Shown: one piece after another, positions 1,518 to 31,308 of the stretch
How positions within the stretch are numbered: the first letter of the stretch is position 1
Layout of the letters: the number at the start of each line of letters is the position of its first letter
Assembly: GCA_945885645.1 (NCBI GenBank)
Contig: CAMCYV010000001.1
Location: 1-38,651 of the forward strand
Source: Bifidobacterium breve
Lineage (GTDB): Bacteria > Actinomycetota > Actinomycetes > S36-B12
Direction: 5' to 3'
DNA length: 38,651 nucleotides
Program-made: the position numbers and the translations under genes
Notes under the pieces: model-generated
What the model was told of the DNA's origin: nothing
Seen by the model: the letters and a program-made list of their open reading frames with translations, nothing else
Database searches by the model: none

Positions 1518-1523
1518 AGACTA
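1518..1523 (-). promoter_or_regulatory. Candidate -10 element TAGTCT (context GTGGGTAGTCT)
   Basis: Fits the actinobacterial TANNNT pattern, about 46 nt upstream of ATG 1472. Related 9-mers occur upstream of three other minus-strand genes. Confidence 0.3.
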
Positions 1524-1549
1524 CCCACAAAATTCACTTCTGGGTAGTC
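1519..1549. repeat. Perfect 9-bp inverted repeat GACTACCCA-N13-TGGGTAGTC
   Basis: Read directly in the 206-bp spacer between the binding-protein paralogs. It overlaps the candidate -10 at 1518-1523. Confidence 0.6.
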
Positions 1550-1573
1550 AGTTATTCATTTTGTTATAAATAT

Positions 1574-1585
1574 ACGGATATCCTA
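1574..1585. promoter_or_regulatory. Operator-like palindrome ACGGATATCCTA (minus-strand TAGGATATCCGT)
   Basis: Intergenic between the two binding-protein genes. Core is GGA-TA-TCC. Confidence 0.3.
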
Positions 1586-1684
1586 CTAAAAAACGGACAA
1601 TTCGACCAAGAAAAGGCCGTAAAAACCCAGTTTGGCTCCCGCAACCTATTTCCTCGTTACTGGTGCTAGTTACTCGTCCAGGAG

Positions 1685-2884: not shown

Positions 2885-3059
2885 GTGACTCTCTTTCAAA
2901 GATGTTAACGACTGAAAGCCCAAAACTACATGCACGTCCAATAAATTGTCTCAGCGACTCGGTTTCAACTTGATCACATTAAGCACGGCATGCGGGCTGT
3001 GGATCACTTGCTATTGTTGTGGCTCATCCATGAATATCCCGTCCCACCCCTGGAGTTCA

Positions 3060-5449: not shown

Positions 5450-6615
5450 TACTGTGCTCCTTCGCTGATCAGGACCGTACAGGCACTAATGCCCGGCGCT
5501 CCATAGACGTGGGTGAAACCAATTCGCGGGGCTCCCGGAACTTGTTTACCGTCAGCGCGACCCTGTAACTGTCTCACGATCTCGTGTACTTGTCGCAAGC
5601 CAGAAGCGCCCACCGGCTCTCCGTTGGCGAGTAAACCACCGTCGGTGTTGAGAGGGAGCCGACCATCAATTTCGAATTCACCGTTGCGGTAAGCGGCTTC
5701 CTGCTCCCCATGGGCAAGGAGGCCGGTCTCACCTAGGTGAATCACTTCGGCTCCGCTGTCAGTGTCCTGGAGCTGGGCTACCTGCACATCCGCTGGCGTC
5801 ATGCCAGCAAGGTCGAATGCTGCTTTCGCCGCGTCAATTGAAGGACTCGTACGGTCACCGGGTGAGAGCCAGGGTGAGAAAACTTCGAACGATCCTGGTC
5901 GGCGACCACGAAGCGCCACCGATGCCAGTCGAATCGGAGTTTCGCACAAGTCATAGGCCTTCGAGCCGCGAGCTAGGACAAGGGAAACCGCGCCAGCATC
6001 AGGGGCACAAAACATGAAACGCGTCAGGGGGTCATTGATCATGTCCGCATCCATTGCTTCATCAACGGAAACCGGCTTGCGCCGCCACGCGTACGGGTGT
6101 TCTTGCGCGTAATCAAATGCTTTTGCCGAGGCATAACCGAGGGTGCGCTGGCTTATTCCGTGTTCATGAAGGTAGCGCGCAATTTTCAGCGCAAAATATG
6201 AAGTAGTAACCATCATGCCTGTGGCGCCATACCAATCGCCCAGTCCATAGCGCGCCGGTGAAACATTGAAAGCTCCCCGAGCGTGATTGTCATAGCCGAC
6301 AACGCAAGCAACATTGAGATCTTCAGCAATTAACCCGTTACGCGCTGTCATGAGAGCCACAGCACCCGTCGCGCAACCATTCTTCACCGTTACGAATGGA
6401 AGCCCGGTGAGTCCCAATCGTGAGACTAGGTTGTCTGGCTTTGTCTCACCATTTGTGCCACCAACCGCGAACTCAATGTCAGACCAGACAAGGCCACAGT
6501 CGGCGAGCGCACCGCGAACCGCGGTCTCGGCAAGCTCGTTATCTTCGCCGTCAAATCTGCCGAACTCTGTTCGGGCTGCTCCGACTATAAAAATGTCGTT
6601 TGCATTCACACTCAT
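5449..6615 (-). CDS. SCP-x/Ltp-type thiolase-like protein (non-canonical catalytic residues)
   Basis: Thiolase fold motifs are present: VGAARTEFGRF, KNGCATGAVAL (Cys81), NTDGGLLANGEPVGASGL. The start overlaps the DUF35 stop (ATGA at 6612-6615). Confidence 0.8.
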   Translation of the reverse strand: MSVNANDIFIVGAARTEFGRFDGEDNELAETAVRGALADCGLVWSDIEFAVGGTNGETKPDNLVSRLGLTGLPFVTVKNGCATGAVALMTARNGLIAEDLNVACVVGYDNHARGAFNVSPARYGLGDWYGATGMMVTTSYFALKIARYLHEHGISQRTLGYASAKAFDYAQEHPYAWRRKPVSVDEAMDADMINDPLTRFMFCAPDAGAVSLVLARGSKAYDLCETPIRLASVALRGRRPGSFEVFSPWLSPGDRTSPSIDAAKAAFDLAGMTPADVQVAQLQDTDSGAEVIHLGETGLLAHGEQEAAYRNGEFEIDGRLPLNTDGGLLANGEPVGASGLRQVHEIVRQLQGRADGKQVPGAPRIGFTHVYGAPGISACTVLISEGAQ

Positions 6616-7019
6616 GTCACAGCCTCGAAACCAAACGTGAAGACGGGTGCACCTTCATGTGTCCAAGCTTTAGCGAGCACCAAACTGACCTGCTCCCCAA
6701 TTGTCCATTCAGTTTTCCCCACTAGCCAGCCTTCAACAATCACAGGGCCGAGGTCTACATAGCCGATGGAAAAAGGAGCAAATTCATCGGTGCGAAATGG
6801 TGGCTTCGGTGCGAAGTGTTGGGTTGTCCACGACCAGACGGTCCCCTCTGTGGGCAGGCTCACTTTCGTGACGTCAAGGCTCGAGCATGTTGGACAGGAA
6901 TCCATGGCCGGGAAAACGTGTGCACCACATGCTTCACACATGGATCCCGCCAAAACAACCGGATCCACAGAAGAAAACAACGTCGAGTCAACAACTTCGA
7001 TGCCCACAGGAATGTTCAT
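6612..7019 (-). CDS. DUF35 Zn-ribbon/OB-fold protein (thiolase/aldolase partner)
   Basis: Zn ribbon CEACGAHVFPAMDSCPTC is followed by OB-fold-like sequence (GTVWSWTT...FSIGYVDLGP.VIVEGWL). ATG at 7017-7019 has GAAGG upstream. The tracked extension to 7310 overlaps the upstream gene and looks spurious. Confidence 0.8.
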   Translation of the reverse strand: MNIPVGIEVVDSTLFSSVDPVVLAGSMCEACGAHVFPAMDSCPTCSSLDVTKVSLPTEGTVWSWTTQHFAPKPPFRTDEFAPFSIGYVDLGPVIVEGWLVGKTEWTIGEQVSLVLAKAWTHEGAPVFTFGFEAVT

Positions 7020-7035
7020 GTATTCGCCTTCGGGA

Positions 7036-8043
7036 TTAGGCCGAAAGGCGCACGAGCGCCTTGCCGAAGTTCGCACCGGACAGTAAACCCTCGAGGCCCG
7101 CTCCTGCGGCGCCAATACCTTCAACAATCGTCGCACGGTCGACCAACTGACCGCTTGCCAACCAACCACTGACTTTCGCTTCAAACTCCGGACGCAGATC
7201 CTCGTAGTCTCGGACAATAAATCCCGTGATGGTAAGTCGTCGGAGGACTGCTTCAATGAGGACCGCGATAGATGGCTGCTCCTGAGTTCCAAAGTTGGAC
7301 ACTGCACCACACATGCTGATACGCCCGCGAATCTTCATGTTATGCAAAGCCGATGCGAATTGCTCGCCACCTACATTGTCAAAAAATAGATCGATTCCTT
7401 CGGGTGCAAGCTTGGATAGCTCCGCCGCGAAATCTTCATCGCGGTAATTGATTACTTCGTCGAAACCGCACTCGGTTGTAAGCCACGAGCATTTATCTGC
7501 ACCACCAGCACTGCCGATAACCCGCCCTGCGCCAAGCAACCTTGCGAACTGTCCAACCATGCTGCCCACGGCTCCACCGGCGCCGGTCACGAGAACCGTC
7601 TCACCCGCAGCCAGATGACCCACGGGAAGAAGTCCTGCGTAGGCGGTAAATCCGGTCTGGCCCATTGAACTCAACCATGAGATCGTTGGCGCCAGCGAAA
7701 GGTCACAAAGTGTTGCGGTCGCGTCGTCAACGACCGCATACTCGCGCCAGCCGAGGCGGTGACGAACTGTGGAACCTACCGGGAGAAGCTCTGAAGCGGA
7801 CTCCTCCACTATTCCGATTGCAGAGCCATCAAGTGGACCGCCGATCTCAAAATTGGTGGTGTACTGCTTCTCGCCCGGGTCCATGCGGCCACGGGTTGAT
7901 GGATCCAAACTCATGTATTGATTGCGCACAAGCGCGGTGCCCGGTGTGAGCTCGGGCAGGTCAATGGTTCCTAACGTGAGGTCACTAGCCACAAACGTTC
8001 GAGCTGGACGAGTGGCAAGAATGACGGCGGTTGTTTGCTTCAC
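7036..8043 (-). CDS. NADP-dependent oxidoreductase, zinc-free MDR family (enone/alkenal reductase-like)
   Basis: Rossmann motif VLVTGAGGAVGSMVGQFARLLGA and overall MDR layout. GTG start overlaps the stop of the upstream small ORF (GTGA at 8040-8043). Confidence 0.8.
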   Translation of the reverse strand: MKQTTAVILATRPARTFVASDLTLGTIDLPELTPGTALVRNQYMSLDPSTRGRMDPGEKQYTTNFEIGGPLDGSAIGIVEESASELLPVGSTVRHRLGWREYAVVDDATATLCDLSLAPTISWLSSMGQTGFTAYAGLLPVGHLAAGETVLVTGAGGAVGSMVGQFARLLGAGRVIGSAGGADKCSWLTTECGFDEVINYRDEDFAAELSKLAPEGIDLFFDNVGGEQFASALHNMKIRGRISMCGAVSNFGTQEQPSIAVLIEAVLRRLTITGFIVRDYEDLRPEFEAKVSGWLASGQLVDRATIVEGIGAAGAGLEGLLSGANFGKALVRLSA

Positions 8044-8255
8044 GCGTTCGCCTCGCGAAGGGCGCGAGCCTCAGGGGTGCGGCCAACCCAACCGGTAGCT
8101 TGTAGGTCAACGGTGAGCATCTCACCCTCTTGCCAGACACCATTGTCATCAAAAATTCCAATACGGTCAGTAGCAGGGTCATGGACTTCAACTAAGCCAA
8201 CCTCGTTGACCGAGTAGACGTATCCAGAGATGGGATGCTTGTAGACCTTGGCCAT
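8040..8255 (-). CDS. Hypothetical small protein (71 aa)
   Basis: ATG at 8253-8255 has a perfect AAGGAG 6 nt upstream. It is the first gene of the string and is translationally coupled to the MDR reductase. I recognise no motif. Confidence 0.5.
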   Translation of the reverse strand: MAKVYKHPISGYVYSVNEVGLVEVHDPATDRIGIFDDNGVWQEGEMLTVDLQATGWVGRTPEARALREANA

Positions 8256-8949: not shown

Positions 8950-9594
8950 TCAGCGATTGGTCAGCAGGCTTCGGTCACCCATCACGTGCGCATGGTCGTT
9001 AAACGAGACAAGTGACAATCCTCGAGCACCTGCTACAACGGTGGTGATCGAGGCATTAACACTCACCCTGTTCATCGAGATCACGCCTTGAGTGTCCGCA
9101 CCTAAGAGTCGACCGGCTAATACCGCACTCACTCCCGCTGAAGTAGCAACGATTGCATCAGACCCGCTTGGCAAACTATCGGCAAGTTCAGTGAGCGCTG
9201 CGAATACTCCGTCGGTGAACTCTTGCCACTCACTTTTTCCATTTTCCATCCAGTCGGTCATAACCGCGTCGAGATGCTGCTGAAATTGCGAAGATGGCAT
9301 CCCTCGCGTTGCCATCGCGTCACCCAAGTGGACATTCACTGCCGCATGAGCATCAAATTCGTTAAATCGAGAATCAATACCCGTGGGAATCACATTAAGT
9401 GACTTTGCCGCAATTTGAGCGGTGTCAATCTGTCTACGCAAACTTCCACTCACTACGACAGGCGAACGAACGCCTCGACGTGCCAATTCCTGACCGGCAA
9501 TATCCGCCTGTCGGCGGCCAAGGTCTGACAAGACGTCGTAGTCGTCGGTACCGAAACTCGCTTGACCGTGTCGCAGAAGGTAGATAACAGGCAT
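8950..9594 (-). CDS. Histidine phosphatase (phosphoglycerate mutase-like) family protein, atypical second motif
   Basis: N-terminal LLRHGQASFG (RHG motif), SGSLRRQIDTA and FNEFD are present. The expected S/T-H-G motif reads TSAG. It is the last gene of the E1/E2 string, 6 nt after the E2 stop. Confidence 0.7.
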   Translation of the reverse strand: MPVIYLLRHGQASFGTDDYDVLSDLGRRQADIAGQELARRGVRSPVVVSGSLRRQIDTAQIAAKSLNVIPTGIDSRFNEFDAHAAVNVHLGDAMATRGMPSSQFQQHLDAVMTDWMENGKSEWQEFTDGVFAALTELADSLPSGSDAIVATSAGVSAVLAGRLLGADTQGVISMNRVSVNASITTVVAGARGLSLVSFNDHAHVMGDRSLLTNR

Positions 9595-14037: not shown

Positions 14038-15018
14038 TTAGCCTTGGCGTCGAGCAGTTCGTGAGGCCAGCGCAACAGCAATAATCAGTGCGGCACCGTT
14101 GAACAGTTGAGTCACATAAGAAGGTGCGCCCGCTAGTTGCAGACCGGTCACACCGGTTGCAAGTAGGAAGATCGCAACAAGTGTTCCGAGCACGTTCACT
14201 CGCCCAGGTCGAATTTGGGTCGCACCAAGAAAAACTGCTGAGAACGCGGGGAGTAGATATCCGCTGCCGCTGTCCGGCGTGGCCGTACCGATAGTGGCCA
14301 GGTAAACGATTCCAGCGAAGGCAGAAGTCACGCCGGAAGAAATGAATGCGACCATGGTTACGCGCCCAACTCGAACTCCAGCAAGTCGGGAAGCGACCGG
14401 GTTTCCACCCACGGCGTAGAGGTAACGACCACCCGGGGTGTATTCCAAGATCCACCAGAAAAATAGTGCTATCAGCGCGGCGTAATACACCGAAAGTGGC
14501 AAACCAAACACTTCGGTCCGGGCAAACTCAAAGAATGGAGCGTAGCCCGCGGTGCTCAATACGATCTGGGAACTATCGGTAATCATGTAGGCAATCGCAA
14601 TCAGAACGCTGCTCATACCGAGGGTGCCGATAAACGAGTCGACCTTGAGTTTGACCACCACCAACGAGTTGGCGAGCCCGATAATGACACCGATCAAGAT
14701 CGATCCCCCGGCCGCAACAACAATTCCATGGCCATTTGTCAGAGCCCACGCAGTGAAACACACCGATACCGTCAACGTTCCCGCGATTGTCAGGTCAAAG
14801 GCCCCCGCTGCCACCGGTAAGAGGAGACCCAACGCGACGATCGCACTGATAGCTTGGAAGGTCAAAACCTGCTTGAGCGTGCTTGTCTGAAGGAACAGGT
14901 CAGGGATCCACAGTGCGAAAACCAGTACTAGTAAGGCCCACACATAGATTCCGCTGTACTTATCAAAGCCAAAATTGATGCGGCGGCGAGGGGCTGCTAC
15001 TTCTTGTATCTCAGACAT
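14038..15018 (-). CDS. ABC transporter permease, monosaccharide (RbsC/XylH-like) type
   Basis: 326 aa and very hydrophobic, with about 9-10 predicted TM segments. Directly downstream of the two-domain ATPase. Confidence 0.8.
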   Translation of the reverse strand: MSEIQEVAAPRRRINFGFDKYSGIYVWALLVLVFALWIPDLFLQTSTLKQVLTFQAISAIVALGLLLPVAAGAFDLTIAGTLTVSVCFTAWALTNGHGIVVAAGGSILIGVIIGLANSLVVVKLKVDSFIGTLGMSSVLIAIAYMITDSSQIVLSTAGYAPFFEFARTEVFGLPLSVYYAALIALFFWWILEYTPGGRYLYAVGGNPVASRLAGVRVGRVTMVAFISSGVTSAFAGIVYLATIGTATPDSGSGYLLPAFSAVFLGATQIRPGRVNVLGTLVAIFLLATGVTGLQLAGAPSYVTQLFNGAALIIAVALASRTARRQG

Positions 15019-15087: not shown

Positions 15088-16629
15088 CTAGGCCGCAGGT
15101 TCTGCCGAATCGCGGCCAATTGTTGCAGCCGTGATGTTGTCCACGGTGATTTTGTCTCCGCGAAGAATCTCCGCTGCCCGACCGCGGCGCATGATCACGA
15201 CGCGATCGCAAACGCGGACAAGTTCTTCATGGTCGGTTGAGCACAGGAGGACTGCTGCCCCCTGGGCCGCGGCTTCATCAACAAGAGTGTGGATGTCAGC
15301 TTTTGCTCCAACGTCCACTCCTTGTGTGGGCTCGTCTAAGACAAGTACCGATGGCTCCTGTCGCAACCAGCGAGCCAAGATCACCTTCTGCTGGTTGCCG
15401 CCGGACAACTGATTCATCTTGTATTCCGTCTGTCCACTTGGCTTCACGGACAAACGGTCCAACCATACGCGAACGTCAGATTTCTCCGGATTGCGTCGCA
15501 AGATACCTAATGACATGTGTCGACCGGGATCAACGAGAGTGATGTTTTCGCGCAATGTTTGATCAAGAAGTGATGCATTGGCATGCCTCTCAGCGGGGAC
15601 AAGCGCAACACCCCGCTGAATCGAGATGTCAGGTCGATTCTGGGGCAGCGTCTTTCCCTCTACGAGAATCTCCCCCGATCTTTCGTGGCCACCGAAAACC
15701 AGCGCGGCCACTTCCTCGCGACCTGAACCGGTTATGCCAGCAACTCCCACTACTTCACCCTGATGAACGGTGAGATCCATTCCGGAAACATTGCGTCCAC
15801 CCACACCCGACAGTTGCAGTACCTCTGTCCCGTGCTCGCGATCAACGGCCTCGCCCTTGTCATGTTCTTCAAGCTTGCGACCGACAACGAGCTCAATCAG
15901 TGCTTCTTCGGTCAATCCAGCGACCGGGAGCGTGTCTATCAACTTTCCGTCGCGCAGCACCGTCACGGATTCGGCCATCTCGAAAACTTCATCGAAGTGG
16001 TGCGAGACAAACAACACGGCCACACCAGAGTCCGCTACTCGGCGAACAAGTTGATACAACCGTTGCGCTTCTGGACCGGGAAGGTTTGCGGTGGGTTCAT
16101 CGAGAATCAGCATTTTCGGTGGCGTTCCACGCTCAGACATTGCCCGAGCGATTGCAACCGCAGTTCGCTCAGACATCTGGAGTGCCGCGACCGGCATGTT
16201 CACGTTGATTTCGTAACCCAATGCGGCGAGGGCCTCACGAGCCTTTGACCGCTCCTTGCGCCAACTAATTGTTTTAGTTGCGTTCGTGATGTAGCCCTGG
16301 CCCAAAGCCATGTTGTCAACGGTGTCCAAATTACCTACAAGTCCGAGGTCTTGATGCACAAAACGCAGACCGGCTGCCTCACTGGCTACCGGGTCTCCCA
16401 GAGCAAGTTCACTTCCGCCGACGAGGACTTCAATACCTGGCTCGGGTTCGTGAAAACCGGCCAAAATCTTGATCAGAGTGGATTTGCCGCAGCCGTTTTG
16501 CCCGACCAGCGCGCGGACTTCCCCCGCTGCAACCTCAATGGTTACGTTGTCCAGTGCGACCTGTGCCCCAAAAACCTTCGTGGCGTTGCGCACGCTGAGC
16601 GCGGATGTCGCAGGTGTTGCCGATGTCAT
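15088..16629 (-). CDS. Sugar ABC transporter ATP-binding protein with duplicated ATPase domains (RbsA/MglA-like)
   Basis: Walker A GQNGCGKST, signature LSGGNQQKV, Walker B VLVLDEPT, and a degenerate first-half signature. ATG has AAGGAGG upstream. Confidence 0.9.
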   Translation of the reverse strand: MTSATPATSALSVRNATKVFGAQVALDNVTIEVAAGEVRALVGQNGCGKSTLIKILAGFHEPEPGIEVLVGGSELALGDPVASEAAGLRFVHQDLGLVGNLDTVDNMALGQGYITNATKTISWRKERSKAREALAALGYEINVNMPVAALQMSERTAVAIARAMSERGTPPKMLILDEPTANLPGPEAQRLYQLVRRVADSGVAVLFVSHHFDEVFEMAESVTVLRDGKLIDTLPVAGLTEEALIELVVGRKLEEHDKGEAVDREHGTEVLQLSGVGGRNVSGMDLTVHQGEVVGVAGITGSGREEVAALVFGGHERSGEILVEGKTLPQNRPDISIQRGVALVPAERHANASLLDQTLRENITLVDPGRHMSLGILRRNPEKSDVRVWLDRLSVKPSGQTEYKMNQLSGGNQQKVILARWLRQEPSVLVLDEPTQGVDVGAKADIHTLVDEAAAQGAAVLLCSTDHEELVRVCDRVVIMRRGRAAEILRGDKITVDNITAATIGRDSAEPAA

Positions 16630-16702: not shown

Positions 16703-19288
16703 TCACGATCCGGTACTGCTCTTTTCCATCGCAACAGGTGCAACATTGACGGACCCGACTCGGGCATGTGCTGCCGCTAACCGGGCGACCGGAATGCGCG
16801 ACGGTGAACATGAAACATAGTCCAGCCCCAGTCGTTCGCAGATCTCTATCGATGACGGATCGCCACCGTGCTCCCCACAAATCCCTAACTTGATATCAGG
16901 TCGTACAGATCGAGCTTTGTCAACCGCATAGGACATCAATGCTCCGACACCGGATTCGTCGAGCTCAGCAAATGGACTGGCTGTCATGAGTCCTTTGGAG
17001 AGATAGGTACCAAGCATGCGCCGTTCAACGTCATCTCGGGAGAAGCCGTACGTGAGCTGCGTTAAATCATTAGTGCCGAATGAAATGAAGTCAGCCCATT
17101 GGGCTAATTGATCGGCTAACAGCGCCGCCCTCGGTGTCTCGACCATGGTGCCGATTTGGAAGGGGATCACCATTCCGCTCCGCGATGAAACTTCTTGGTT
17201 CACCCGGCGGATCAGTCGGAGCATCATGAGCAATTCATCAGGGATCGACACCAACGGAATCATCACTTCAAGTTCAGGGTGGGCATCACCGGAAGAGACC
17301 ACGTCGACCCATGCATTGAAAAGTCCTTCAACCTGCGCGGGATACAAACCCTCATGCATCAATGCGAGCCGCACACCGCGCACACCCAGCATTGGATTTT
17401 CTTCGTGCATGTGTTCCAACATCCGGGCCTGATTCGCATCTTCTGCTTGATCGGCGCTGGCGGGGAGGAATTCGTGCATCGGTGCATCAAGTAATCGAAC
17501 GGTGACCGGCCGGTCACCCACGGCGCGCAATAAATCACGGAAGTCTTCACGTTGGGCATCGGCGAGGGCGGCGAGGGCGGCTTCTTCCGCGTCAAAGTCG
17601 TGGGAAAGGATCACCCGACGCACGAGCGGCAAACGGTCGCCCATGAACTGGTGCTCGGTGCGACACAAACCAATTCCCTCGGCACCACTGTCCATAGCAA
17701 TGGCGGCATCTGCGCCGTTGTCGGCATTGGCACGAACACCTAGCCTTCGCAAGTCATCAGCCCAACCCAGCAGAGCGGTCAAACTTGGTGAAGGAACAGG
17801 GGGCTCAATAATTAATTCACCAACGTATGCGACACCGGTAGCACCGTCAATTGAAATAACGTCACCGGCGCGCAACACATGAGCACCCGCGGTGAGGGTT
17901 TGCGCTTCATGATCAATGCGTAGATCCCCCGCTCCGCAGATCGCCGGCCGACCCATCCCGCGAGCAACCACGGCTGCATGTGAGGCCGAGCCACCATTAA
18001 TCGTCATGATTCCGGTTGCAGCCATCATGCCGGGTAAATCACCCGGGGTTGTCTCACTCATGACCAGGAGTACGGACTCTCCCGACTCAGCCAAATCAAC
18101 CGCACTCTCACTGGTGATTGCAATGCGGCCGACCGCTGCCCCCGGAGATGCGGCCAGACCTGAAACAAAAGGAACTTCTGCACCGGTGAGCTTGGGCTGA
18201 GGGTGGAGTAACTCCAGTACATGTGGGGATTCGACCGCGCGCACCGCGTCGATTTCACTGCTAATTCCCCGTGTGACCAGGTCAACGACGAGGCTCGTGG
18301 CTACCCGCGCATTAGGCTTGCGCAACTGTTCCAACCCAACGAGAGCCAGGCCTTCAGGCCCAAATTCAAAGTCGACAATCACCGAACTGCGGAGCCGACC
18401 CTCGAGCTCGGCCAACACGCCGGTCAACATTTCCACTCCGTTGGGCAACATGCTTAACGGAAGTCCACCTTGCTGCCGTTCGCTACCTGAACGGAAGCCA
18501 TGTCGGAACAAGCCATTGGGTGCAAACTGCCCGGAGTCCATTTCACGTGACATGGCAAAACCATGACCCTCTGCATCATGCTCGGTGACAACGATTGTTT
18601 CAAGATGAAGGGCCAAAGGGAGATCAGCGGGAAGATTCTGCTTGCGTCGGGCACGCGCTGCGCGCGGTGAATTCCAGCGAGCCAACATTGCCTGGGCTGC
18701 AGCCGCAACCTGCTCACTTCGCTTAGTGGGAAACGGTGATGAGCCTTTTTCCTTGCACAACCGCCGGAACGGTTCAACCCGTTCAACGAGATCCGGGTAG
18801 TCAAAATCAAGTGTGCCCAAGTCTTCAATGGGAACACCCAATGCGTGCTCGGCAATAAATGCTGCGGTTTTCCACCAGGCAACACCCAGTTCACCTCGCG
18901 CTTTAGGACCCAGCCCTTCAGGGATAACACTTCGCTTGAGTCCGAGACAGGTGAGGTCCGGCGGTAGGCCAGCAGCAGCGACCGGTGCACTCGCACTCAA
19001 TCGCAGAAGTACAAGACCACCAGTTTCGGTCGTGGAACTGATCTCGCGACCAGCGATATTTTCCACTAAGTTCATTGCTGCTTTAGCCCGGTCCGGGGAG
19101 GTGAAGCCGGGAACGTTTGGCACAGGAATTGTTAGACCTGCGCCAACAGGAAGGCCAAGGCCTGCAAGAGTTTCTAGTTCAATGCCTCGGGTACACAGTG
19201 ATCGCGCATCGAGTCCGCGCTGTAATCCACTGCCGAATGGGACAAGTCCAACGTCATCGATTGGCCCTGTTCGAAATATTGGGCTCAC
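16703..19288 (-). CDS. Pyruvate,phosphate dikinase-like PEP-utilizing enzyme with a divergent N-terminal domain
   Basis: GGSASHAAVVARGMG (His codon 17978-17980), GIGLCRTEH, SFGTNDLTQLTYGFSRDD and KLGICGEHGGDPSSI are collinear with PPDK. The N-terminal ~340 aa are poorly conserved. GTG start overlaps the upstream stop (GTGA). Confidence 0.8.
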   Translation of the reverse strand: MSPIFRTGPIDDVGLVPFGSGLQRGLDARSLCTRGIELETLAGLGLPVGAGLTIPVPNVPGFTSPDRAKAAMNLVENIAGREISSTTETGGLVLLRLSASAPVAAAGLPPDLTCLGLKRSVIPEGLGPKARGELGVAWWKTAAFIAEHALGVPIEDLGTLDFDYPDLVERVEPFRRLCKEKGSSPFPTKRSEQVAAAAQAMLARWNSPRAARARRKQNLPADLPLALHLETIVVTEHDAEGHGFAMSREMDSGQFAPNGLFRHGFRSGSERQQGGLPLSMLPNGVEMLTGVLAELEGRLRSSVIVDFEFGPEGLALVGLEQLRKPNARVATSLVVDLVTRGISSEIDAVRAVESPHVLELLHPQPKLTGAEVPFVSGLAASPGAAVGRIAITSESAVDLAESGESVLLVMSETTPGDLPGMMAATGIMTINGGSASHAAVVARGMGRPAICGAGDLRIDHEAQTLTAGAHVLRAGDVISIDGATGVAYVGELIIEPPVPSPSLTALLGWADDLRRLGVRANADNGADAAIAMDSGAEGIGLCRTEHQFMGDRLPLVRRVILSHDFDAEEAALAALADAQREDFRDLLRAVGDRPVTVRLLDAPMHEFLPASADQAEDANQARMLEHMHEENPMLGVRGVRLALMHEGLYPAQVEGLFNAWVDVVSSGDAHPELEVMIPLVSIPDELLMMLRLIRRVNQEVSSRSGMVIPFQIGTMVETPRAALLADQLAQWADFISFGTNDLTQLTYGFSRDDVERRMLGTYLSKGLMTASPFAELDESGVGALMSYAVDKARSVRPDIKLGICGEHGGDPSSIEICERLGLDYVSCSPSRIPVARLAAAHARVGSVNVAPVAMEKSSTGS

Positions 19289-19899
19289 GCCCCGCTCTCC
19301 GCAATGAGGCGCTCCTCAAGCTCCTCGTCTTCTTTACGCGACATTCCGATGGTCAAGATAAGTTCTTGGTGAAGGTGCATCCAGACCGTGTGGTACGAGT
19401 CAATTAGTGGAGATGCGAGCCAAGCGTCTTCACCGTCGTCAAGTTTGGCGAGAGCCTCCGTGAGTTTTTCGCGGTAACCGGCCATTCGGGGAATGTCCTC
19501 GGTGAATCGTTTGAGAAGTGGCGCCACTGAATCGTCGATGTCGTCCAGGCGGTCACGGATATCAGCGTCATAGTTTTCATCGGAGTGGTCATTGACGCTG
19601 CCATCGGGACGAACCTGCCACGATGTACACAAGTCGCGTAGTGCGCGGTTTACCGGAAGAAAACGGTGAAAAGTAGCCATGATGCGCTCGCGCTCGGGGG
19701 CCTGATCGGGCAGTCGAAGTGACTCTGAGACAAATTCGGTGCCGGCCGGGGTCGGCATCATGATCGGTCCTTTGATCAGAATCAACCCAGCGTCGGCCAG
19801 AGCCTGTTGCTGTGCTGAGACCTCGCCACGGGCCATTCCCCGAATAACCAAAGTCACGAGCGCGTCGCGCTCTTCTTCTGCCAAGACCACGTCGCTCAT
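19285..19899 (-). CDS. Hypothetical protein (204 aa), translationally coupled to the PPDK-like gene
   Basis: ATG has GGAGAAG upstream. Acidic, helix-rich sequence with no motif I recognise. 4-nt overlap with the next gene. Confidence 0.55.
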   Translation of the reverse strand: MSDVVLAEEERDALVTLVIRGMARGEVSAQQQALADAGLILIKGPIMMPTPAGTEFVSESLRLPDQAPERERIMATFHRFLPVNRALRDLCTSWQVRPDGSVNDHSDENYDADIRDRLDDIDDSVAPLLKRFTEDIPRMAGYREKLTEALAKLDDGEDAWLASPLIDSYHTVWMHLHQELILTIGMSRKEDEELEERLIAESGA

Positions 19900-22076: not shown

Positions 22077-23792
22077 TTAAGCGGTCTCGAGTACTTCGAT
22101 GGTGCCCTTGGCGCCGTCAACTCGAAGCAGATCGCCAGTTTTAAACATCTTGGTGGCACCGGGCAGACCGGCAACACAAGGAATGCCGAGTTCGCGAGCA
22201 ACTATCATTGCGTGCGAAGCCATTGAGCCGGTGTTCACCACGACAGCCGTGGCCAACATGAATAACGGTGTCCATGACGGGTCGGTCTGGGGTGCGACCA
22301 AGATTTCACCCGGCTCAAACTCCCCAATTGCATCAGTGCCCAAAACAATGCGTGCACGTCCCTCGACCACACCCTGCGATGCGGCAGCTCCATTGAAAGA
22401 ATCACCGACCTTTGCGCGATCAACGGCAACTGAACCCTTGCGGGGTATTTCCGATACTGGCGGGATTGGCTTTCCACTGTCCAAGAAGGTGGGAACTTCG
22501 AGGTCTTTGAGCGCCAACCACTGGGTTTGGCGTTCGCGGATACTCGGTAGCAGTGCGCCGTTGCCGAGTGCGAGGGCGTCCAACTCGTTGTCGAGTGCGA
22601 TGAAAATCTGTCGCGAATCATCAAGGACACCCTGTGCTGCAAGGCGGTTACCCAATTCAATTAAGGCCATCCGGGCTTCGTTCATAATCTTGATACAGGA
22701 TGACTTTCCGCTTTCACGCCAACCGGCGAAACGTCGAGCTGAACCGATAGCTCCACGGAACATCGCCTCAGTTGCGGCGTCCATACCTGCTGTGGCCTCG
22801 AGCATCGCTTGGTCGGTAGCCGCAGCGTGCAATGCCTGCTTTGCCGAAGGTGATTCCGAGTCTTCGAGTAAACGCATCTTGTCAACGAGTGCGAGTGCAA
22901 GTGAAGGCTTGGACTCCCATGACTCGGTTCCCAGATCCCATTCGGATGGACCGCGGTAACCGAACTCTCCGATAAATGCAGCGAACTCATTCCAGAAACC
23001 ACCGGTTGCTGTCGGGAGTTGGGCTTCAACCTTGTCCATTCCGCTGTTAAACAACTTGGTCATCTCTGGGCTGTTCTTCACCGTGCGCGAGAGCGACCAC
23101 AGTGAATAGGTTGGTGCCGCAGACTCAACGTCACCGGCGTAGCCGAGGATCGTGATCAGCAAATGGGCCTTGTCAGCGCCGAGAATTTGACCGGCAACGG
23201 CTGGGCCAACCGCCGCGTTTGAGGCGCCAATCTGTTCCGAGCGCCAAGCCAGACGTTCATATGGCATCACGGAGCGTGCTCGTGCAACGAGTGCGCGGTT
23301 GCTCATGGCCTTGAGGTTAGGGCGATTGCGACGTAGATCATCAGCGATTGCAGAGTCTTCGTCGGCGCCCTCAAACTTTGACGTGTTGAGTACCCAGCCA
23401 GCGCGCGCACCCCCGAGTGCGGTGAGTAACTCATTGGCATCGGTTGCTGATGCAACGTGGGGTGGGGCTCCAGGGGAATTAAAGAAGATTGAGTCGATGA
23501 TATCCGCGGTCATGCCCTTGCGGATTCCCAAAACTCGGACGTTACTCTGATTTATATAGAGGTATCCGTAAAAGAATCCAGCGACGGCGGATTCTTCGGT
23601 GAGCTCGTCTGCTGTGAAACAAACGTCTTCGACGTAACCGGATGCCCAACCGGGAAGAACGTTGGGGATCCAACACATGGTTGCACCAAGTGGTGTAATC
23701 GGATCAGCCATCACGTCTGCGGCATTGAGCCGGGTATAAATCGGGAACCTTACGCTGGGCTCGGTATCAGTGAGCCACGCCTTTTTTGACAT
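22077..23792 (-). CDS. PEP-utilizing swivel-His domain protein lacking an ATP-grasp domain (rifampin-phosphotransferase-like substrate plus His domains), paralog 1
   Basis: C-terminal VVEGRARIVL..EPGEILVAPQTDPSWTPLFM..GSMASHAMIVARELGIPCVAG (His codon 22212-22214). The N-terminus MSKKAWLTDTEPSVRFPIYTR parallels the paralog start. An alternative ATG lies at 23804. Confidence 0.75.
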   Translation of the reverse strand: MSKKAWLTDTEPSVRFPIYTRLNAADVMADPITPLGATMCWIPNVLPGWASGYVEDVCFTADELTEESAVAGFFYGYLYINQSNVRVLGIRKGMTADIIDSIFFNSPGAPPHVASATDANELLTALGGARAGWVLNTSKFEGADEDSAIADDLRRNRPNLKAMSNRALVARARSVMPYERLAWRSEQIGASNAAVGPAVAGQILGADKAHLLITILGYAGDVESAAPTYSLWSLSRTVKNSPEMTKLFNSGMDKVEAQLPTATGGFWNEFAAFIGEFGYRGPSEWDLGTESWESKPSLALALVDKMRLLEDSESPSAKQALHAAATDQAMLEATAGMDAATEAMFRGAIGSARRFAGWRESGKSSCIKIMNEARMALIELGNRLAAQGVLDDSRQIFIALDNELDALALGNGALLPSIRERQTQWLALKDLEVPTFLDSGKPIPPVSEIPRKGSVAVDRAKVGDSFNGAAASQGVVEGRARIVLGTDAIGEFEPGEILVAPQTDPSWTPLFMLATAVVVNTGSMASHAMIVARELGIPCVAGLPGATKMFKTGDLLRVDGAKGTIEVLETA

Positions 23793-23855
23793 GTGAACGT
23801 CCATTTCGTGTGAGGGTGAAAGGGTCAGAGTTAGCGAATGTTACCACCGCCAAAC

Positions 23856-23877: not shown

Positions 23878-25086
23878 CTATCGAGGGCCGTGTACCGGCT
23901 CATGGGCGAGCAGTCGACGAATCGTTTCATGGGCGTGCTGAACGGCAATCTCATTACGACCGATGGTCATGTACTGATCAGCGAGTGAAGCGAGGCCATT
24001 TTGCACGTCGGTCTGCGCCGTGTAGTCCTCATCACGGAAGGCAGCGAAAAACCATTCGGCGGTTTTCTCTGCCTCGAGAAACTCTTCGGGAGTTTGGGGC
24101 GGCGTGCGCAGCAGCGTTGTCTGCCACGTCATTGACTCACCCCATGAGTCACCCGGAAGCATGATCGAGATTACGGTGCGCTCACGCAATCCACCAGCAA
24201 TCGCCATACCTGGAAAGACCCAGTACACAAGGCCCATGGCCTCTGCGGGATCCCATTCATCTCGCGGTTTTTCCATCATGGCGTCAAGGGTTTTCAGCGC
24301 GAACACATTACGCACGTGCGGACCAAATGAATCTAACGTCATGCGGTTGGTGTGGTTGGTGAGGGCAACGGTTTTTGCGTGCAGTGAACTGAAGTGATAA
24401 CCCTCGAGGTACCCGTCCAAAGTCACTTTCCAGTTGGGGCCGGGCAATGTTTTCGTGGTGAAGTGTGTGCACTTGTCAAGCTCGAGCGCCTCGAGGTGCG
24501 GCAGTACCTCACCGAGCCAAGCGTCGATCCCCAAGTCCATGTCGGGGGTAAGTCCAATGAAAATGAAACCGGCCCGTTCTACACACGGCAGTTGCACCAA
24601 ACTGAAATCTTCTTTGTTTACTTCACCGAAAGTATCTTCACCGGGAACTCCCGTAAGTTTTCCGTCGGTGTCATAGGTCCACGAGTGGTAGCCACAGGTG
24701 AATCTGCGCGCACTTCCGCAGCCATCGGCTAGAAGTTTCATGGCGCGGTGACGACACACATTGATCATCGCTCGCATCGTGCCGTCCTTGCCGCGAACAA
24801 GGATGATTTCTTTGCCGACCACTCGCATTGTTTTAAAGTCACCAACGTTTGCGAGTTCGGCCGAAGTACCTACTGGCAAGGGAATTGCTTGAAAGATCTC
24901 CTTGATCTCCCGTTCCCACAAATCTTGATCCAAGTACTCCGAAATCGGGACCTTCAGTTGCTCAGGTGCCATGTCGGTCGTCTGGTTACGCAGATGGGAA
25001 GCAAGTCGATCAAGGATGGACATTGCTTCTTCACGGCTCAACGCGGTGTGCGTGCCCGATGTGTATTGGGGCAGTGTCTCGGTCAT
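23878..25086 (-). CDS. Rieske [2Fe-2S] / mononuclear iron oxygenase alpha subunit
   Basis: Rieske motif CRHRAMKLLADGCGSARRFTCGYHSW (24685-24756). Iron ligands EGYHFSSLH and a downstream Asp. No beta subunit gene is adjacent. Confidence 0.9.
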   Translation of the reverse strand: MTETLPQYTSGTHTALSREEAMSILDRLASHLRNQTTDMAPEQLKVPISEYLDQDLWEREIKEIFQAIPLPVGTSAELANVGDFKTMRVVGKEIILVRGKDGTMRAMINVCRHRAMKLLADGCGSARRFTCGYHSWTYDTDGKLTGVPGEDTFGEVNKEDFSLVQLPCVERAGFIFIGLTPDMDLGIDAWLGEVLPHLEALELDKCTHFTTKTLPGPNWKVTLDGYLEGYHFSSLHAKTVALTNHTNRMTLDSFGPHVRNVFALKTLDAMMEKPRDEWDPAEAMGLVYWVFPGMAIAGGLRERTVISIMLPGDSWGESMTWQTTLLRTPPQTPEEFLEAEKTAEWFFAAFRDEDYTAQTDVQNGLASLADQYMTIGRNEIAVQHAHETIRRLLAHEPVHGPR

Positions 25087-25120: not shown

Positions 25121-25834
25121 TCAGTTTGTCCGGATGCCGTCATGCAGGTGCTGGCTCTCATTGATTGAATGCACTCGACGAATATCTCCCTTAATCCACA
25201 CCCGGCTCAGTGAACAGTGTGATGGCAAGAAGAACATGTCTTCTTCGATCCCCAAGATCTCACTAATGACTGCATTGATGACACCGCCGTGGCTCACCAA
25301 AACAATGTGCTGTCCTTCGTAGTCTGCAATCAATTTTTTAATGGCTCCCATGACGCGGGCACGAAACTCTGCTGAACCTTCACCAAAAAACATGTGGTCC
25401 CACATGACTTGGCGATAAAAGGCCTGCTCGCGTGCGGCCCATTCCTCGGGGTCAACCAAAGTCTGCGGGTTAACCCCTGGTTCGAGCTCGCGGTAAGACG
25501 CGATCTCAACAAACTCAGGACGCACTTCTGGTGTGAGCCCGAGCGGAAACGCAATGATCTCCGCTGTTTCCTTTGCCCGATGCATTGAGCTACACACGAC
25601 AACATCAACTTCCTGCTCGGTCAGCACACCTGCAAGTGCAGCTGCCTGAACCCGACCAAGATCACTCAACATTGGGTCATCCCACGCGGTGTGGTCAAAC
25701 TCTTCTTCGGTTGGGAACACCTGCTGGGCATGGCGAACCAACGTCAGTCGGGTAACACCATCTTCGAGCAGGAGAAACGGGATCCGAACAGAAAACGGTG
25801 GCTCAGGTGACAGCGGAGGAAGAACTATCTTCAT
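25121..25834 (-). CDS. Histidine phosphatase (phosphoglycerate mutase-like) family protein
   Basis: LTLVRHAQQ (RH motif), CSSMHRAKETA and VLVSHGGVINA are present. The start overlaps the stop of the upstream swivel-His gene (ATGA at 25831-25834). Confidence 0.75.
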   Translation of the reverse strand: MKIVLPPLSPEPPFSVRIPFLLLEDGVTRLTLVRHAQQVFPTEEEFDHTAWDDPMLSDLGRVQAAALAGVLTEQEVDVVVCSSMHRAKETAEIIAFPLGLTPEVRPEFVEIASYRELEPGVNPQTLVDPEEWAAREQAFYRQVMWDHMFFGEGSAEFRARVMGAIKKLIADYEGQHIVLVSHGGVINAVISEILGIEEDMFFLPSHCSLSRVWIKGDIRRVHSINESQHLHDGIRTN

Positions 25835-27567
25835 ACAGACTCAATCACCTTCACGGTGCCGGTGGATCCATCGAGTTCAACGAGCGTGCCACTCGGCAGT
25901 GATGTACTCGCACCCGCCAATGAGACAACACAGGGGACTCCTAGTTCTCGGCTGACAATCACCGCGTGGCTGGCTTGGGCACCGATTTCACAGATCACCG
26001 CACTGGCGATCATGAAAAGTGGAACCCACGAAGGGTCGGTGGTTGTGCAGACAAGAATTTCACCGGGCTCCAATGAGTCAGCGTCGGCGAGGTCCAAGAT
26101 CACCCGGGTGCGAGCCGTCACTGCACCTTGTGAACCGGGAATGCCTTTCATCTGCGTTCCCGCCGCGGCTCCGACACCCTCGGCGAACCGGCGGCGCTTG
26201 GGCCACTCACTAATCGGTGGAATTGGACGATCGCGGATCACCAAATAGGGCGGCTCAAGTTCAGCGAGTGTCAACCATTGCGCGTGCCGTGCTGCCGTTA
26301 TTTCAGTGAAGGATGCTGGATCTGCGATGAATGAATCCAATTCACTTTCCAGTATTTGGAATACATGCATTGGGTCCGCAAGGAGACCGCGCTCGTGCAT
26401 CCGACGGCCCAGTTCGCGGAAAGCGAGTTTGGGCTCCTGCATCAACATAACGGTGGCATTTTTGCCGGCTTCACGTAGTCGATATGCGATTTGACCCGAG
26501 GAAATCCCCGCAGCCAGTAAGCCTGCTGTTGCTTCGTCACCAGCAACAGCTGCGGTAAGTTCTTCGACTGCAGCTTGACGGCGTTTGGCTGATTCGCCAG
26601 CCCGCAGTGTTGGGGACATTGCGTCCTCCTGTCGGCGGACGCGGTCAATCATTTGGTAGGCGAGCGTCGGGTTGATCAGCCACGTCTGAGCACTGATTTC
26701 CCATTCGTTTACACCGCGATGACCGAACATGCTGATCAATTCATCAAATTCTGAATTGAACTTAGCCGCGGTCGGTTCAGCGGCAAGGCGTTCGGCGAGA
26801 CCGTCCATGCCAGCGTCGAAGGCAGCTGTTAGTTCTGCTGATCCGCGAACCAGACGGGAGAGATCCCAGACCCGCTCGGGCATTCCCGCTGAGGCGACGT
26901 CACCTAATGCGCCAAAGATTTGAATTGCTAATTCGGATTTACCGACCGCATCAGCGATCCCTTGCACAATTTGCGGCCCCACCGTTGCTCCAATAACAAC
27001 CTGTGCGTAAGCATCCCAACCTGGACGCTGCCACCGGGCCGAGGTGCGTCCGTACTCGACAAGAGCTGCATCCGAAATGGTTGCAAGGTCTGGTCGACTG
27101 GCACGCCACTTCGCGGCATCCGCCAAATATTTCGCGGCCAGCGCTTCCTGGGCCCCACCCAGAATTGCGCCGAAGGATTCACCCAACTTCGCCGAGCATG
27201 CTTCATTGTCATCACGCGGATCGTGAACATACGGTGGAACAGTCGAGTTTTGGCCGAAGAAAGAAATATCAATTGCATCAGGGGTCGCGCCTGGCATGCG
27301 ATGACCGAACACTCGACCGAGTGAAACCTGGTTGTAGAAATAGCCGCCCCATGATCCATATGTTTCTGGTTGCGTCCACAAAAACTCATCGGGTTCAAAA
27401 GTGCCGAGGGCGATCCAGGCATCGGCTGTACCCGGCGCCATCCCTTGTTCCCATGTCAGCGTCCAGTTCAACGGTGTGAATGGCTCCGGGCCGACTTCGT
27501 CGGCATTGGCGCGCGTGTAAATAGGGAAACGCTCGCTGGGCTCAGTGTCAGCTATCCACGTTTTCAT
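25831..27567 (-). CDS. PEP-utilizing swivel-His domain protein lacking an ATP-grasp domain, paralog 2
   Basis: C-terminal AVTARTRVIL..EPGEILVCTTTDPSWVPLFM..GAQASHAVIVSRELGVPCVV (His codon 25966-25968). N-terminus is MKTWIADTEPSERFPIYTR. ATG has GGAGGA upstream. Confidence 0.8.
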   Translation of the reverse strand: MKTWIADTEPSERFPIYTRANADEVGPEPFTPLNWTLTWEQGMAPGTADAWIALGTFEPDEFLWTQPETYGSWGGYFYNQVSLGRVFGHRMPGATPDAIDISFFGQNSTVPPYVHDPRDDNEACSAKLGESFGAILGGAQEALAAKYLADAAKWRASRPDLATISDAALVEYGRTSARWQRPGWDAYAQVVIGATVGPQIVQGIADAVGKSELAIQIFGALGDVASAGMPERVWDLSRLVRGSAELTAAFDAGMDGLAERLAAEPTAAKFNSEFDELISMFGHRGVNEWEISAQTWLINPTLAYQMIDRVRRQEDAMSPTLRAGESAKRRQAAVEELTAAVAGDEATAGLLAAGISSGQIAYRLREAGKNATVMLMQEPKLAFRELGRRMHERGLLADPMHVFQILESELDSFIADPASFTEITAARHAQWLTLAELEPPYLVIRDRPIPPISEWPKRRRFAEGVGAAAGTQMKGIPGSQGAVTARTRVILDLADADSLEPGEILVCTTTDPSWVPLFMIASAVICEIGAQASHAVIVSRELGVPCVVSLAGASTSLPSGTLVELDGSTGTVKVIESV

Positions 27568-30558: not shown

Positions 30559-31308
30559 TTAGTCGAGGATGGTTTCGCGCAAGCGGTTGATATCGCTTGC
30601 GTCTAAACCTTTTGCGCGAGCCCATTCCTCTGCACTGCCGTAGTTACTCGTCATGCGTGCCAGGAATTCGCGCATGGTGTCCGGCTCGGAGGCGAAGATC
30701 CAATCGGGAGCCCCGGCCAAGCCGTTGTCTTTGAATACTTGGGCGGAGCGAATTCGCTCGATAATCGGGGCCATGTTGGTGGTGGTGACGTGATAGTCAG
30801 CAACAATATTTTCGTGCGAGACTCCGAGAATGTCGAGAAGCATCGCAATGACAACCCCAGTGCGGTCCTTTCCTGCTGTGCAGTGAACAACAAGTGGTCG
30901 GTTCTGCGGATCTGCCATTAAACGTAGAGCCTCAATTATTGATGGTGCGTTGATTTCAATCTGACGCAGATAGTCGTCAACCAAATTGTCTGCGCCGCCT
31001 GCTTCGATTTGCTCTGGGGTGATACCCGACTGGGGGATCATCGGCAGGTGCACCATACGTGCAGATTCGTGCCCGATCACATAACCCTCATGGGTCACCT
31101 CGAGCGCCATCCGTAAATCAACTACGAGCGCCGGAGCAATTTCTTCTGACAAATCCAACTGGCCCTGCTCGGTCATTCCTTTCGGGTTATCACTGCGAAT
31201 CACTTGACGCGACCGAATCAGTCGACCGTCTTGTACCTGTAGTCCACCAAGATCACGAACATTAACCAGGCCATCTATTCGTAGTTCTTCAGCCCGAGAC
31301 TCACTCAT
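30559..31308 (-). CDS. Cys-based (CX5R) tyrosine/dual-specificity phosphatase family protein
   Basis: Active-site loop VHCTAGKDRTG. The start overlaps the upstream stop (ATGA at 31305-31308). Confidence 0.8.
   Translation of the reverse strand: MSESRAEELRIDGLVNVRDLGGLQVQDGRLIRSRQVIRSDNPKGMTEQGQLDLSEEIAPALVVDLRMALEVTHEGYVIGHESARMVHLPMIPQSGITPEQIEAGGADNLVDDYLRQIEINAPSIIEALRLMADPQNRPLVVHCTAGKDRTGVVIAMLLDILGVSHENIVADYHVTTTNMAPIIERIRSAQVFKDNGLAGAPDWIFASEPDTMREFLARMTSNYGSAEEWARAKGLDASDINRLRETILD

Follow-up and report, generated by a model that had tools for sequence, protein, structure and literature searches.

A pyruvate, phosphate dikinase-like protein with an intact PEP and histidine half, a remodelled nucleotide-binding domain and an Rv1126c-family partner gene

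The DNA analysed here, a stretch of 38,651 nucleotides referred to as the window (Bifidobacterium breve in GenBank; GTDB lineage Bacteria; Actinomycetota; Actinomycetes; S36-B12; assembly GCA_945885645.1, contig CAMCYV010000001.1, positions 1 to 38,651 of the forward strand), carries on its minus strand two overlapping genes that are the subject of this work. The larger one (16703-19288) encodes an 861-aa full-length homologue of pyruvate, phosphate dikinase (PPDK), designated P0001, and the smaller one (19285-19899), identified by translation, encodes a 204-aa protein of the Rv1126c-like type. Both open reading frames (ORFs) are present as reported in a first-pass annotation made from the nucleotide sequence without database searches, and direct reading of the DNA bore out the GTGA overlap that it had described: at 19285-19288 on the minus strand, the 204-aa gene ends with ...GGG GCG TGA and the PPDK-like gene starts with GTG AGC CCA.... 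A 4-nt overlap or a gap of less than 10 nt recurs at Nanopelagicales, Streptomyces, Rhodococcus and Actinomadura loci, and the GTGA arrangement points to translational coupling of the two genes.

A Pfam scan of the 861-aa protein found the PEP-utilizers domain (PF00391, residues 405-485, 67.7 bits) and the PEP-utilizers_C domain (PF02896, residues 505-842, 246.6 bits), and PPDK_N (PF01326) was not detected. The PPDK equivalog model TIGR01828 scored 652.4 bits, below its cut-off of 843.45, with only residues 161-844 aligned, and a phmmer comparison of P0001 with the PDB gave the same pattern. The AlphaFold model (predicted local distance difference test, pLDDT, 88.3 overall and 80-95 in the N-domain) has the three-domain fold of PPDK, with an ATP-grasp nucleotide-binding domain (NBD), a swivel domain and a TIM barrel in the same order, and all top Foldseek matches were PPDK structures (E 1e-73 to 1e-60). 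Identity to PPDK (EC 2.7.9.1; 1DIK and 1KBL from C. symbiosum, 5JVL from Flaveria) was ~33-34% over the Foldseek alignments, with TM scores up to 0.74. On the minus strand, the pseudo-nucleotide-binding domain (residues 1-345) spans 18254-19288; according to hhalign and AlphaFold, its fold is kept and the ATP, Mg and phosphate ligands are replaced. The swivel phosphohistidine domain (residues 372-495; PF00391 and alignment to 1GGO/2R82) occupies 17804-18175 and includes the codon of the catalytic His437 at 17978-17980, followed by the PEP/pyruvate-binding TIM barrel (PEP, phosphoenolpyruvate; residues 500-845; PF02896) at 16754-17791, whose active site is intact.

The residues of the PEP and histidine half are all in place. 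With the C. symbiosum enzyme as the reference for numbering, the catalytic H455 corresponds to H437 and the PEP-site residues R561, R617, E745 and D769 to R543, R598, E717 and D741, all of them kept in P0001 and invariant in 61 aligned sequences, as are N740 (N768 in C. symbiosum), C804 (C831) and the segment S436-H437-A438-A439-V440-V441 around the catalytic histidine. The regulatory Thr453 of PPDK is replaced by Ala435. The collinearity with PPDK and the canonical His/PEP motifs proposed in the first-pass annotation are upheld, and every motif that it cited was found in the 861-aa translation. Judged from these residues, the machinery for the half-reaction between PEP and the histidine is intact in P0001.

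The nucleotide-binding domain gave the opposite picture. A profile built from 53 N-domains of the family was compared with a profile of canonical N-domains using hhalign (probability 100%, E 4.5e-42, 22% identity, 343 columns), and MAFFT gave the same correspondences. Over residues 1-381, the C. symbiosum reference sequence matches 9PZL/1DIK with 100% identity, so the residue numbering of the literature applies. Of the published PPDK residue checklist (K22, R92, D321, E323, R337, H455, R561, R617, D769 and E745; PMC13147460, citing Herzberg 1996), none of the five nucleotide-site residues is kept: K22 is replaced by R34 (His in Streptomyces), R92 by S98, D321 by I304, E323 by D306 and R337 by E320, the last two positions being variable within the family. 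Furthermore, Q335 is replaced by G318, Q240 by E230 and T253 by H242, neither Mg-ligand position is retained, and P0001 lacks the NAQGEDVVA loop as well as a stretch of 14 residues near residue 160. The profile alignment therefore confirmed the degeneracy of the nucleotide site, which had first been seen in an alignment made by eye, with the caveat that an Arg near R92 and the Glu of a DFEF motif might be retained. Of this caveat, the first part stands in that a family-invariant arginine (R96) lies two residues ahead of the R92-equivalent position; the second does not, as the acidic residues of DFEF pair with E323 and T325 instead of D321 and E323. On this alignment, the nucleotide half-site of P0001 is to be regarded as formally gone.

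The earlier description of this domain as eroded is contradicted by its conservation. The N-domain has its own family invariants, including R96, S100-A101, G107-L108-P109, R204, W205, P208, R209, R212, R214, H228, G241, G243, S247 and R248, and is ~40% identical between Nanopelagicales and Streptomyces. Nei-Gojobori estimates of the nonsynonymous to synonymous rate ratio (dN/dS) among Nanopelagicales orthologues, approximate because dS is near saturation, were ~0.05-0.12 for the N-domain, 0.04-0.21 for the swivel domain and 0.03-0.14 for the barrel. Since the N-domain is under purifying selection and has invariant residues of its own, it has been repurposed rather than eroded.

Homologues of P0001 in which PF01326 is likewise undetected, which we call the pseudo-N family, range from metagenome-assembled genomes (MAGs) of freshwater bacteria to Streptomyces and Actinomadura. 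NCBI labels the relatives as "putative PEP-binding protein", a term for which a full-text literature search found no paper, and some relatives also carry a PPDK annotation in their sources. In a tree of the NBD and swivel domains, the pseudo-N family is monophyletic (100/100), with a long branch that separates it from canonical PPDKs and from VadK, the PPDK-derived Rv1127c of M. tuberculosis, whose His422 is autophosphorylated with ATP/Mg (PMC13400623). Thus, the pseudo-N proteins form a clade of their own and do not cluster with bona fide PPDKs. Proteins of the VadK type are nested among the canonical PPDKs in this tree, and a common origin of VadK and the pseudo-N family as sisters from one Rv1126c-paired ancestor was accordingly rejected. 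In a search of 400 genomes across the phylum, the pseudo-N profile also matched canonical PPDKs, at 105-155 bits, so that the resulting tally is non-discriminating and establishes no more than that none of the other sampled genomes exceeds 200 bits. Canonical PPDKs co-exist with the pseudo-N family in related genomes, once directly adjacent, which implies that proteins of the P0001 type are not the housekeeping enzyme. At the adjacent locus (L042:3782-10131), a canonical full-length PPDK gene is divergently oriented ~290 bp from a 204-aa/PPDK-like pair, and at another (L074:3487-10585) such a gene lies 3.7 kb from a paralogue of the 204-aa gene. These two layouts hint at an origin of the pseudo-N family by local duplication of a PPDK gene.

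The 204-aa protein, which had been described as motif-less, has no Pfam or NCBIfam match and no sequence match in the PDB. A permissive Pfam scan of 29 members of its family found no consistent family and only sporadic weak MarR/TrmB/PadR-like matches. The 204-aa ORF has 644 close homologues, its family counts 1342 representatives at 50% identity, and it is therefore a real gene; its product is 47-64% identical to Streptomyces-type and other divergent homologues. The AlphaFold model (pLDDT 93.9) shows a winged-helix-like N-terminus followed by a five-helix bundle, and a Foldseek search of this model against the PDB returned nothing with E<0.04 except weak winged-helix look-alikes (MukE/F, PadR, MntR) beyond that limit. 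Across 150 representatives, the near-invariant residues are F80, N84, W94, Q95, N103, D104, H105, D107, Y110, D111, R138, Y142, G156, S168, Y169, H170, W173, H177 and R188. Conservation is concentrated in the helical bundle, where the motifs N-D-H-x-D-x-x-Y-D (103-111) and S-Y-H-x-x-W-x-x-x-H (168-177) are at least 88% conserved in the same set, and the winged-helix part is the least conserved.

The relationship to Rv1126c was established through a published primer. Used as a search pattern, the rv1127c quantitative PCR primer from PMC13400623 had one exact match among 301 Mycobacterium genomes, in a genome of 4.4 Mb. There, the VadK ORF carries a canonical N-domain (313 bits) and a swivel domain, and the ORF that overlaps the 3' end of rv1127c by 4 nt matches the hidden Markov model (HMM) of the 204-aa family with E 1.7e-46, which makes Rv1126c a member of this family. 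The 204-aa protein of the window shares the features of Rv1126c-like proteins: a length of ~200 aa, the bundle core, both motifs and a swivel-histidine protein as its neighbour or fusion partner. More distant members of the family (Mycobacterium, Gordonia, Nocardia, Haloechinothrix) are found beside, or fused to, a protein with a canonical NBD and a swivel domain but without the barrel; this short PPDK is of the VadK type (NF004531), and a gene for an Rph-like protein lacking the ATP-grasp domain (here called headless) is usually near. One further operon with a distant, 197-aa member (L005:2983-7082) consists of genes for a 291-aa protein without a Pfam match, a 126-aa stand-alone swivel protein, a TetR regulator, the 197-aa protein and a DUF7064-HAD hydrolase.

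Pairing of the two genes was found from both sides. In 6/6 loci (the window, L002, L003, L004, L092 and L093), the PPDK-like gene is immediately preceded by a gene of the 204-aa family, which was identified by translation in L002-L004 and as a 209-226-aa gene without Pfam matches in L092 and L093. Conversely, 80 reference-genome loci of the 204-aa family were surveyed with six custom HMMs, and in 51 of the 60 close-homologue loci with enough downstream DNA a gene for a pseudo-N, swivel and barrel protein follows directly. In the nine exceptional loci, the 204-aa gene is mostly followed by an acyl-CoA dehydrogenase gene. Five of the exception genomes were tested. Four of them have, at another locus, a full-length gene of the pseudo-N PPDK-like type (358-375 bits), so that at least these four extra 204-aa copies are paralogues; the fifth (G711, from L044) gave only fragmentary pseudo-N matches of 138 and 78 bits. 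The co-occurrence of the two genes is therefore conserved, and the suggestion that the 204-aa protein is a partner of the PPDK-like protein gains from this linkage, from the translational coupling and from homology to Rv1126c, which co-purifies with VadK. Paralogues of the 204-aa gene directly 5' of an acyl-CoA dehydrogenase gene were seen at L040:9920-11709, L074:9956-11815 and also in L041, L044-L046, L050 and L051, with a 4-nt overlap in L040. In Streptomyces-type loci, this dehydrogenase gene comes after the PPDK-like gene, and the arrangement gives the impression that the PPDK-like gene was excised from between the two.

The 204-aa domain also occurs in four fusion architectures. It precedes a swivel domain and a PEP barrel in P0206 and P0209 ([204]-[swivel]-[PEP barrel]), which leave no room for an NBD; it follows a VadK-type NBD and a swivel domain in P0222, P0271 and L091; it follows the swivel domain of headless Rph-like proteins in P0248, P0251 and P0294; and it is joined to a HAD domain in P0330 (HAD-[204]). 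Three of the four architectures thus link the 204-aa domain to a swivel domain, on donor or on acceptor proteins.

Two headless proteins are encoded in the window, both on the minus strand. The first (575 aa, 22077-23804) consists of a substrate-binding part and a swivel domain with its histidine (PF00391 at residues 496-567), and its residues 211-574 align to positions 530-892 of the Rph-type NCBIfam models. The second (578 aa, 25831-27567) was recognised by Pfam and NCBIfam matches. Both resemble Rph and HpeH without the ATP-grasp domain and are candidate phosphoryl acceptors. The first-pass annotation had tied such headless swivel proteins to the gene pair. This association was borne out by their fusion to the 204-aa domain in other organisms and by a survey of ten genomes of 4.5-12 Mb (Streptomyces, Kitasatospora, Actinomadura, Rhodococcus and five soil MAGs), all ten of which have at least one close headless Rph-like homologue within ~35 kb of the PPDK-like gene; in several of them, all of the few headless Rph-like homologues lie within this distance.

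The genome of the window (G000), a 1.6-Mb MAG of a freshwater actinobacterium that is 78.7% complete, encodes five swivel domains: one in the PPDK-like protein, two in the headless proteins of the window and two in headless proteins encoded in tandem on contig C100. It therefore has four headless kinases for a single 204-aa gene and a single 204/PPDK-like pair. P0001 is the only PEP-utilizers_C protein of the assembled genome, and neither the PF01326 ATP-grasp domain nor HPr (PF00381) was found in the assembled 78.7%. Absence of the ATP-grasp domain was considered as a general feature of the carrier genomes and rejected, because 5/5 larger relatives carry PF01326 proteins elsewhere. On contig C100 (L095:1-5451), one of the two ATP-grasp-less Rph/HpeH-like genes is truncated by the contig end (1-1137) and the other spans 1246-3012. 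After them come two genes for glyoxalase-fold proteins, one for a DUF3237 protein and one for an SDR protein, and no 204-aa or PPDK-like gene is beside the tandem pair.

Between the two headless kinases of the window, on the same strand, Pfam matches identified a Rieske oxygenase alpha subunit (23878-25086) and a histidine-phosphatase-fold protein (25121-25834), which provide the context for a "phosphorylate, oxidise, dephosphorylate" route. The island as a whole contains the Rieske oxygenase, two His-phosphatase-fold proteins, a Tyr-phosphatase-like protein, a HAD protein, acyl-CoA dehydrogenases (ACADs), a thiolase-like/DUF35 pair, E1/E2 proteins and CoA-dependent enzymes. Its four phosphatase-type genes lie at 8950-9594, 25121-25834, 30559-31308 and 36799-37500 (two of the His-phosphatase fold, one Y_phosphatase3 and one HAD) and are consistent with phosphorylated intermediates. 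A string of genes at 5449-8255, encoding a small 71-73-aa ORF product, an ADH_N_2 reductase, a DUF35 protein (ChsH2-type OB), a thiolase-like protein and an ACAD, is conserved near the pair in a distant soil actinobacterium (L092:14924-17848), where it is accompanied by a ferredoxin and a Rieske oxygenase. For the thiolase-like/DUF35 genes, the anaerobic 25-hydroxysteroid kinase/lyase system was weighed as a possible analogue. In two soil relatives (L003:1-1742 and L092:701-5141), a headless Rph-like gene is co-oriented with and adjoins genes for a KstD-like FAD_binding_2 flavoprotein and an SDR protein, with overlap in L092, and these neighbours suggest a steroid- or terpenoid-like substrate.

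On the other side of the pair, Pfam and NCBIfam matches confirmed a sugar-type ATP-binding cassette (ABC) ATPase (15088-16629) and an ABC permease (14038-15018), both on the minus strand, with gaps of 73 bp between the PPDK-like gene and the ATPase gene and 69 bp between the ATPase and permease genes, as first reported. ABC genes are present in matching order at L004. In Streptomyces-type loci they are absent from this place, which is occupied by an acyl-CoA dehydrogenase gene. Consequently, association with an ABC importer does not hold as a general trait, and the linkage is limited to the clade of the window.

P0001 belongs to the PEP-utilising/PPDK superfamily and falls outside PPDK (by the model cut-off and the nucleotide-site residues), the VadK family (NF004531) and Enzyme I of the phosphotransferase system (PTS), although its proposed action would correspond to the PEP half of these proteins. 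Compared with PPDK, besides the residue replacements, deletions, lower model score and separate clade described above, it always has a 204-aa partner gene. With VadK, it shares descent from PPDK, a swivel histidine that is functional in VadK, a 4-nt overlap with a gene of the same small-protein family, an actinobacterial host and proximity to propionate, steroid and lipid catabolic genes. Nevertheless, the two proteins are mirror images: VadK keeps the ATP-grasp domain and has no PEP barrel, whereas in P0001 the PEP barrel is retained and the ATP site is gone. In addition, the partner gene is upstream for P0001 and downstream in M. tuberculosis, and the NF004531 model scored only 128.7 bits on P0001 (cut-off 456), which has a barrel and a degenerate ATP-grasp domain. 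Rv1126c, the operonic partner of VadK, raises its solubility and is removed from it only by a 2 M NaCl wash (PMC13400623).

PTS Enzyme I resembles P0001 in its swivel histidine domain and homologous PEP-binding barrel, and in the logic proposed here, in which PEP would phosphorylate a histidine that serves a small partner and, further downstream, several acceptors. In contrast, Enzyme I has a helical HPr-binding subdomain where P0001 has the pseudo-ATP-grasp domain, and the proposed acceptors of P0001 are small-molecule kinases, not sugar permeases. The Enzyme I model TIGR01417 gave 127.5 bits (cut-off 341.7) on P0001, whose N-terminal part is of the PPDK type. A third group of relatives comprises HpeHI, CreHI and PpsAB (PMC12167813; PMC9618137), which initiate catabolic routes that include a later dephosphorylation. 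Their subunits HpeH, CreH and PpsA consist of a substrate domain and a swivel domain without ATP-grasp, need a separate phosphodonor subunit (PMC12167813) and are laid out like the 575- and 578-aa proteins of the window. The donors HpeI, CreI and PpsB are stand-alone ATP-grasp proteins that use ATP, whereas the candidate donor of the window is a PEP-barrel protein with a dead ATP-grasp domain and an additional 204-aa component.

With moderate confidence, we interpret the 861-aa protein as a PPDK paralogue that became an Enzyme-I-like, PEP-dependent phosphohistidine donor and forms a module with the 204-aa protein for charging the headless kinases. PEP would bind to the intact C-terminal barrel and phosphorylate His437 on the swivel domain with release of pyruvate. 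The N-domain, with the PPDK fold and without AMP, pyrophosphate or ATP chemistry, would serve as a scaffold holding the co-translated Rv1126c-like protein, and would be dispensable where the 204-aa domain is covalently fused. The 204-aa protein would be a station visited by the phosphorylated swivel domain, either as a histidine phosphocarrier (through the invariant H105, H170 and H177) or as a docking or catalytic adaptor. From there, the phosphoryl group would pass to the swivel histidine of the Rph/HpeH-like kinases without ATP-grasp, of which the window encodes two and contig C100 another two, and these kinases may then phosphorylate small-molecule intermediates of the surrounding catabolic island. 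The first-pass annotation had similarly suggested, by analogy with Enzyme I, a PEP-driven phosphodonor without conventional use of AMP and pyrophosphate; every testable part of that suggestion held, and from these parts we infer the phosphorelay itself.

Several points weigh against this proposal. We know of no precedent for a relay between two swivel domains, and P0001 already has a swivel histidine of its own. The headless kinases could equally well dock directly on the PEP barrel, and the three invariant His residues with Asp in the 204-aa protein resemble a metal site no less than a phospho-acceptor. The more distant members of the 204-aa family also include proteins without a recognisable adjacent partner. 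The missing ATP-grasp domain of the 78.7%-complete G000 is weak evidence, as relatives carry a canonical PPDK and a full-length Rph-like protein elsewhere. Finally, in M. tuberculosis the role ascribed to the VadK/Rv1126c pair is regulation of methylcitrate-cycle enzymes instead of phosphate donation to small-molecule kinases (PMC13400623).

In a rather unlikely alternative, the pair is a VadK-like regulatory switch that senses the PEP/pyruvate ratio and controls the enzymes or transcription of the island through phospho-His437 and the winged-helix 204-aa protein. It would agree with the description of VadK, which has a partner of the same family, as a regulatory histidine kinase interacting with methylcitrate-cycle enzymes (PMC13400623), and the winged-helix-like N-terminal module and the sporadic MarR/TrmB/PadR-like matches of the 204-aa protein fit it as well. 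The conservation of the 204-aa family argues otherwise, being lowest in the winged-helix part and highest in the bundle. So do the fusions of the 204-aa domain to enzymes (headless Rph-like kinases and a HAD hydrolase), which are not expected of a DNA-binding factor, and the tight linkage to HpeH-type kinases, which need a donor. A PEP-sensing regulator does have a precedent in Enzyme I of PTS-Ntr.

Unlikely to a slightly greater degree is a self-contained PEP-dependent kinase, in which the remodelled N-domain or the docked 204-aa protein binds a new small-molecule acceptor that phospho-His437 phosphorylates directly, and the headless kinases are independent. The former ATP cleft with its family-specific invariants (R96, H228, R248 and the G107-L-P loop) under purifying selection is compatible with a new binding site, the [204]-[swivel]-[PEP barrel] fusions show the 204-aa domain in place of the NBD, and the invariant His/Asp cluster might serve as a metal site for catalysis. 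Such a kinase leaves unexplained how the four headless kinases are charged, as well as the [headless Rph-like]-[swivel]-[204] fusions, which have no donor domain.

It is improbable that P0001 is a genuine PPDK (EC 2.7.9.1) with a divergent nucleotide site, possibly for another nucleotide or polyphosphate. Full-length collinearity and fold identity with PPDK, the PPDK annotation of relatives and the status of P0001 as the only PEP-utilizers_C protein of the assembled genome speak for it. They are set against a TIGR01828 score below the cut-off, no detectable PF01326, replacement of all five nucleotide-site residues together with loss of both Mg-ligand positions and of the NAQGEDVVA loop, the presence of canonical PPDKs in other genomes (once side by side with the pair) and an NCBI name that goes no further than "putative PEP-binding protein". 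A decaying remnant, in which the N-domain and the small ORF have no function, would account for the lost canonical motifs and the lack of a family annotation for the small ORF, but is refuted by the low dN/dS in all three domains, the 40% identity of the N-domain between Nanopelagicales and Streptomyces and the 47-64% identity of the 204-aa protein to divergent homologues within a family of 1342 representatives.

Within the PEP-utilising/PPDK superfamily, P0001 is most appropriately treated as a new type, and its partner comes from a protein family for which Pfam has no model. PPDK, PEP synthase, Enzyme I and the Rph/HpeHI dikinases share the same three kinds of module, and the pseudo-N family would be the first case in which a full PPDK retains only the PEP half-reaction and has acquired a new protein as its partner. 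This family is also the mirror image of VadK, a truncated PPDK required for the virulence of M. tuberculosis, and a harmless, widespread system with the same partner family offers a way to learn the role of the Rv1126c protein tightly bound to VadK.

More tentatively, Actinobacteria may possess a second, PTS-like catabolic phosphorelay, in which a PPDK derivative, using PEP in the pseudo-N family and ATP in the VadK type, and an Rv1126c-family histidine phosphocarrier acting between two swivel domains charge substrate-specific HpeH/Rph-like kinases that have no ATP domain of their own. If so, PEP would be the direct phosphoryl donor for the activation of small molecules, and the system would provide a mechanistic template for the M. 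tuberculosis virulence factor VadK/Rv1126c. If the relay exists, PEP rather than ATP would activate catabolic intermediates in abundant freshwater Actinobacteria, Streptomyces, Rhodococcus and Actinomadura, and the annotation of such genes as "pyruvate, phosphate dikinase" would misstate the central carbon metabolism of these organisms.

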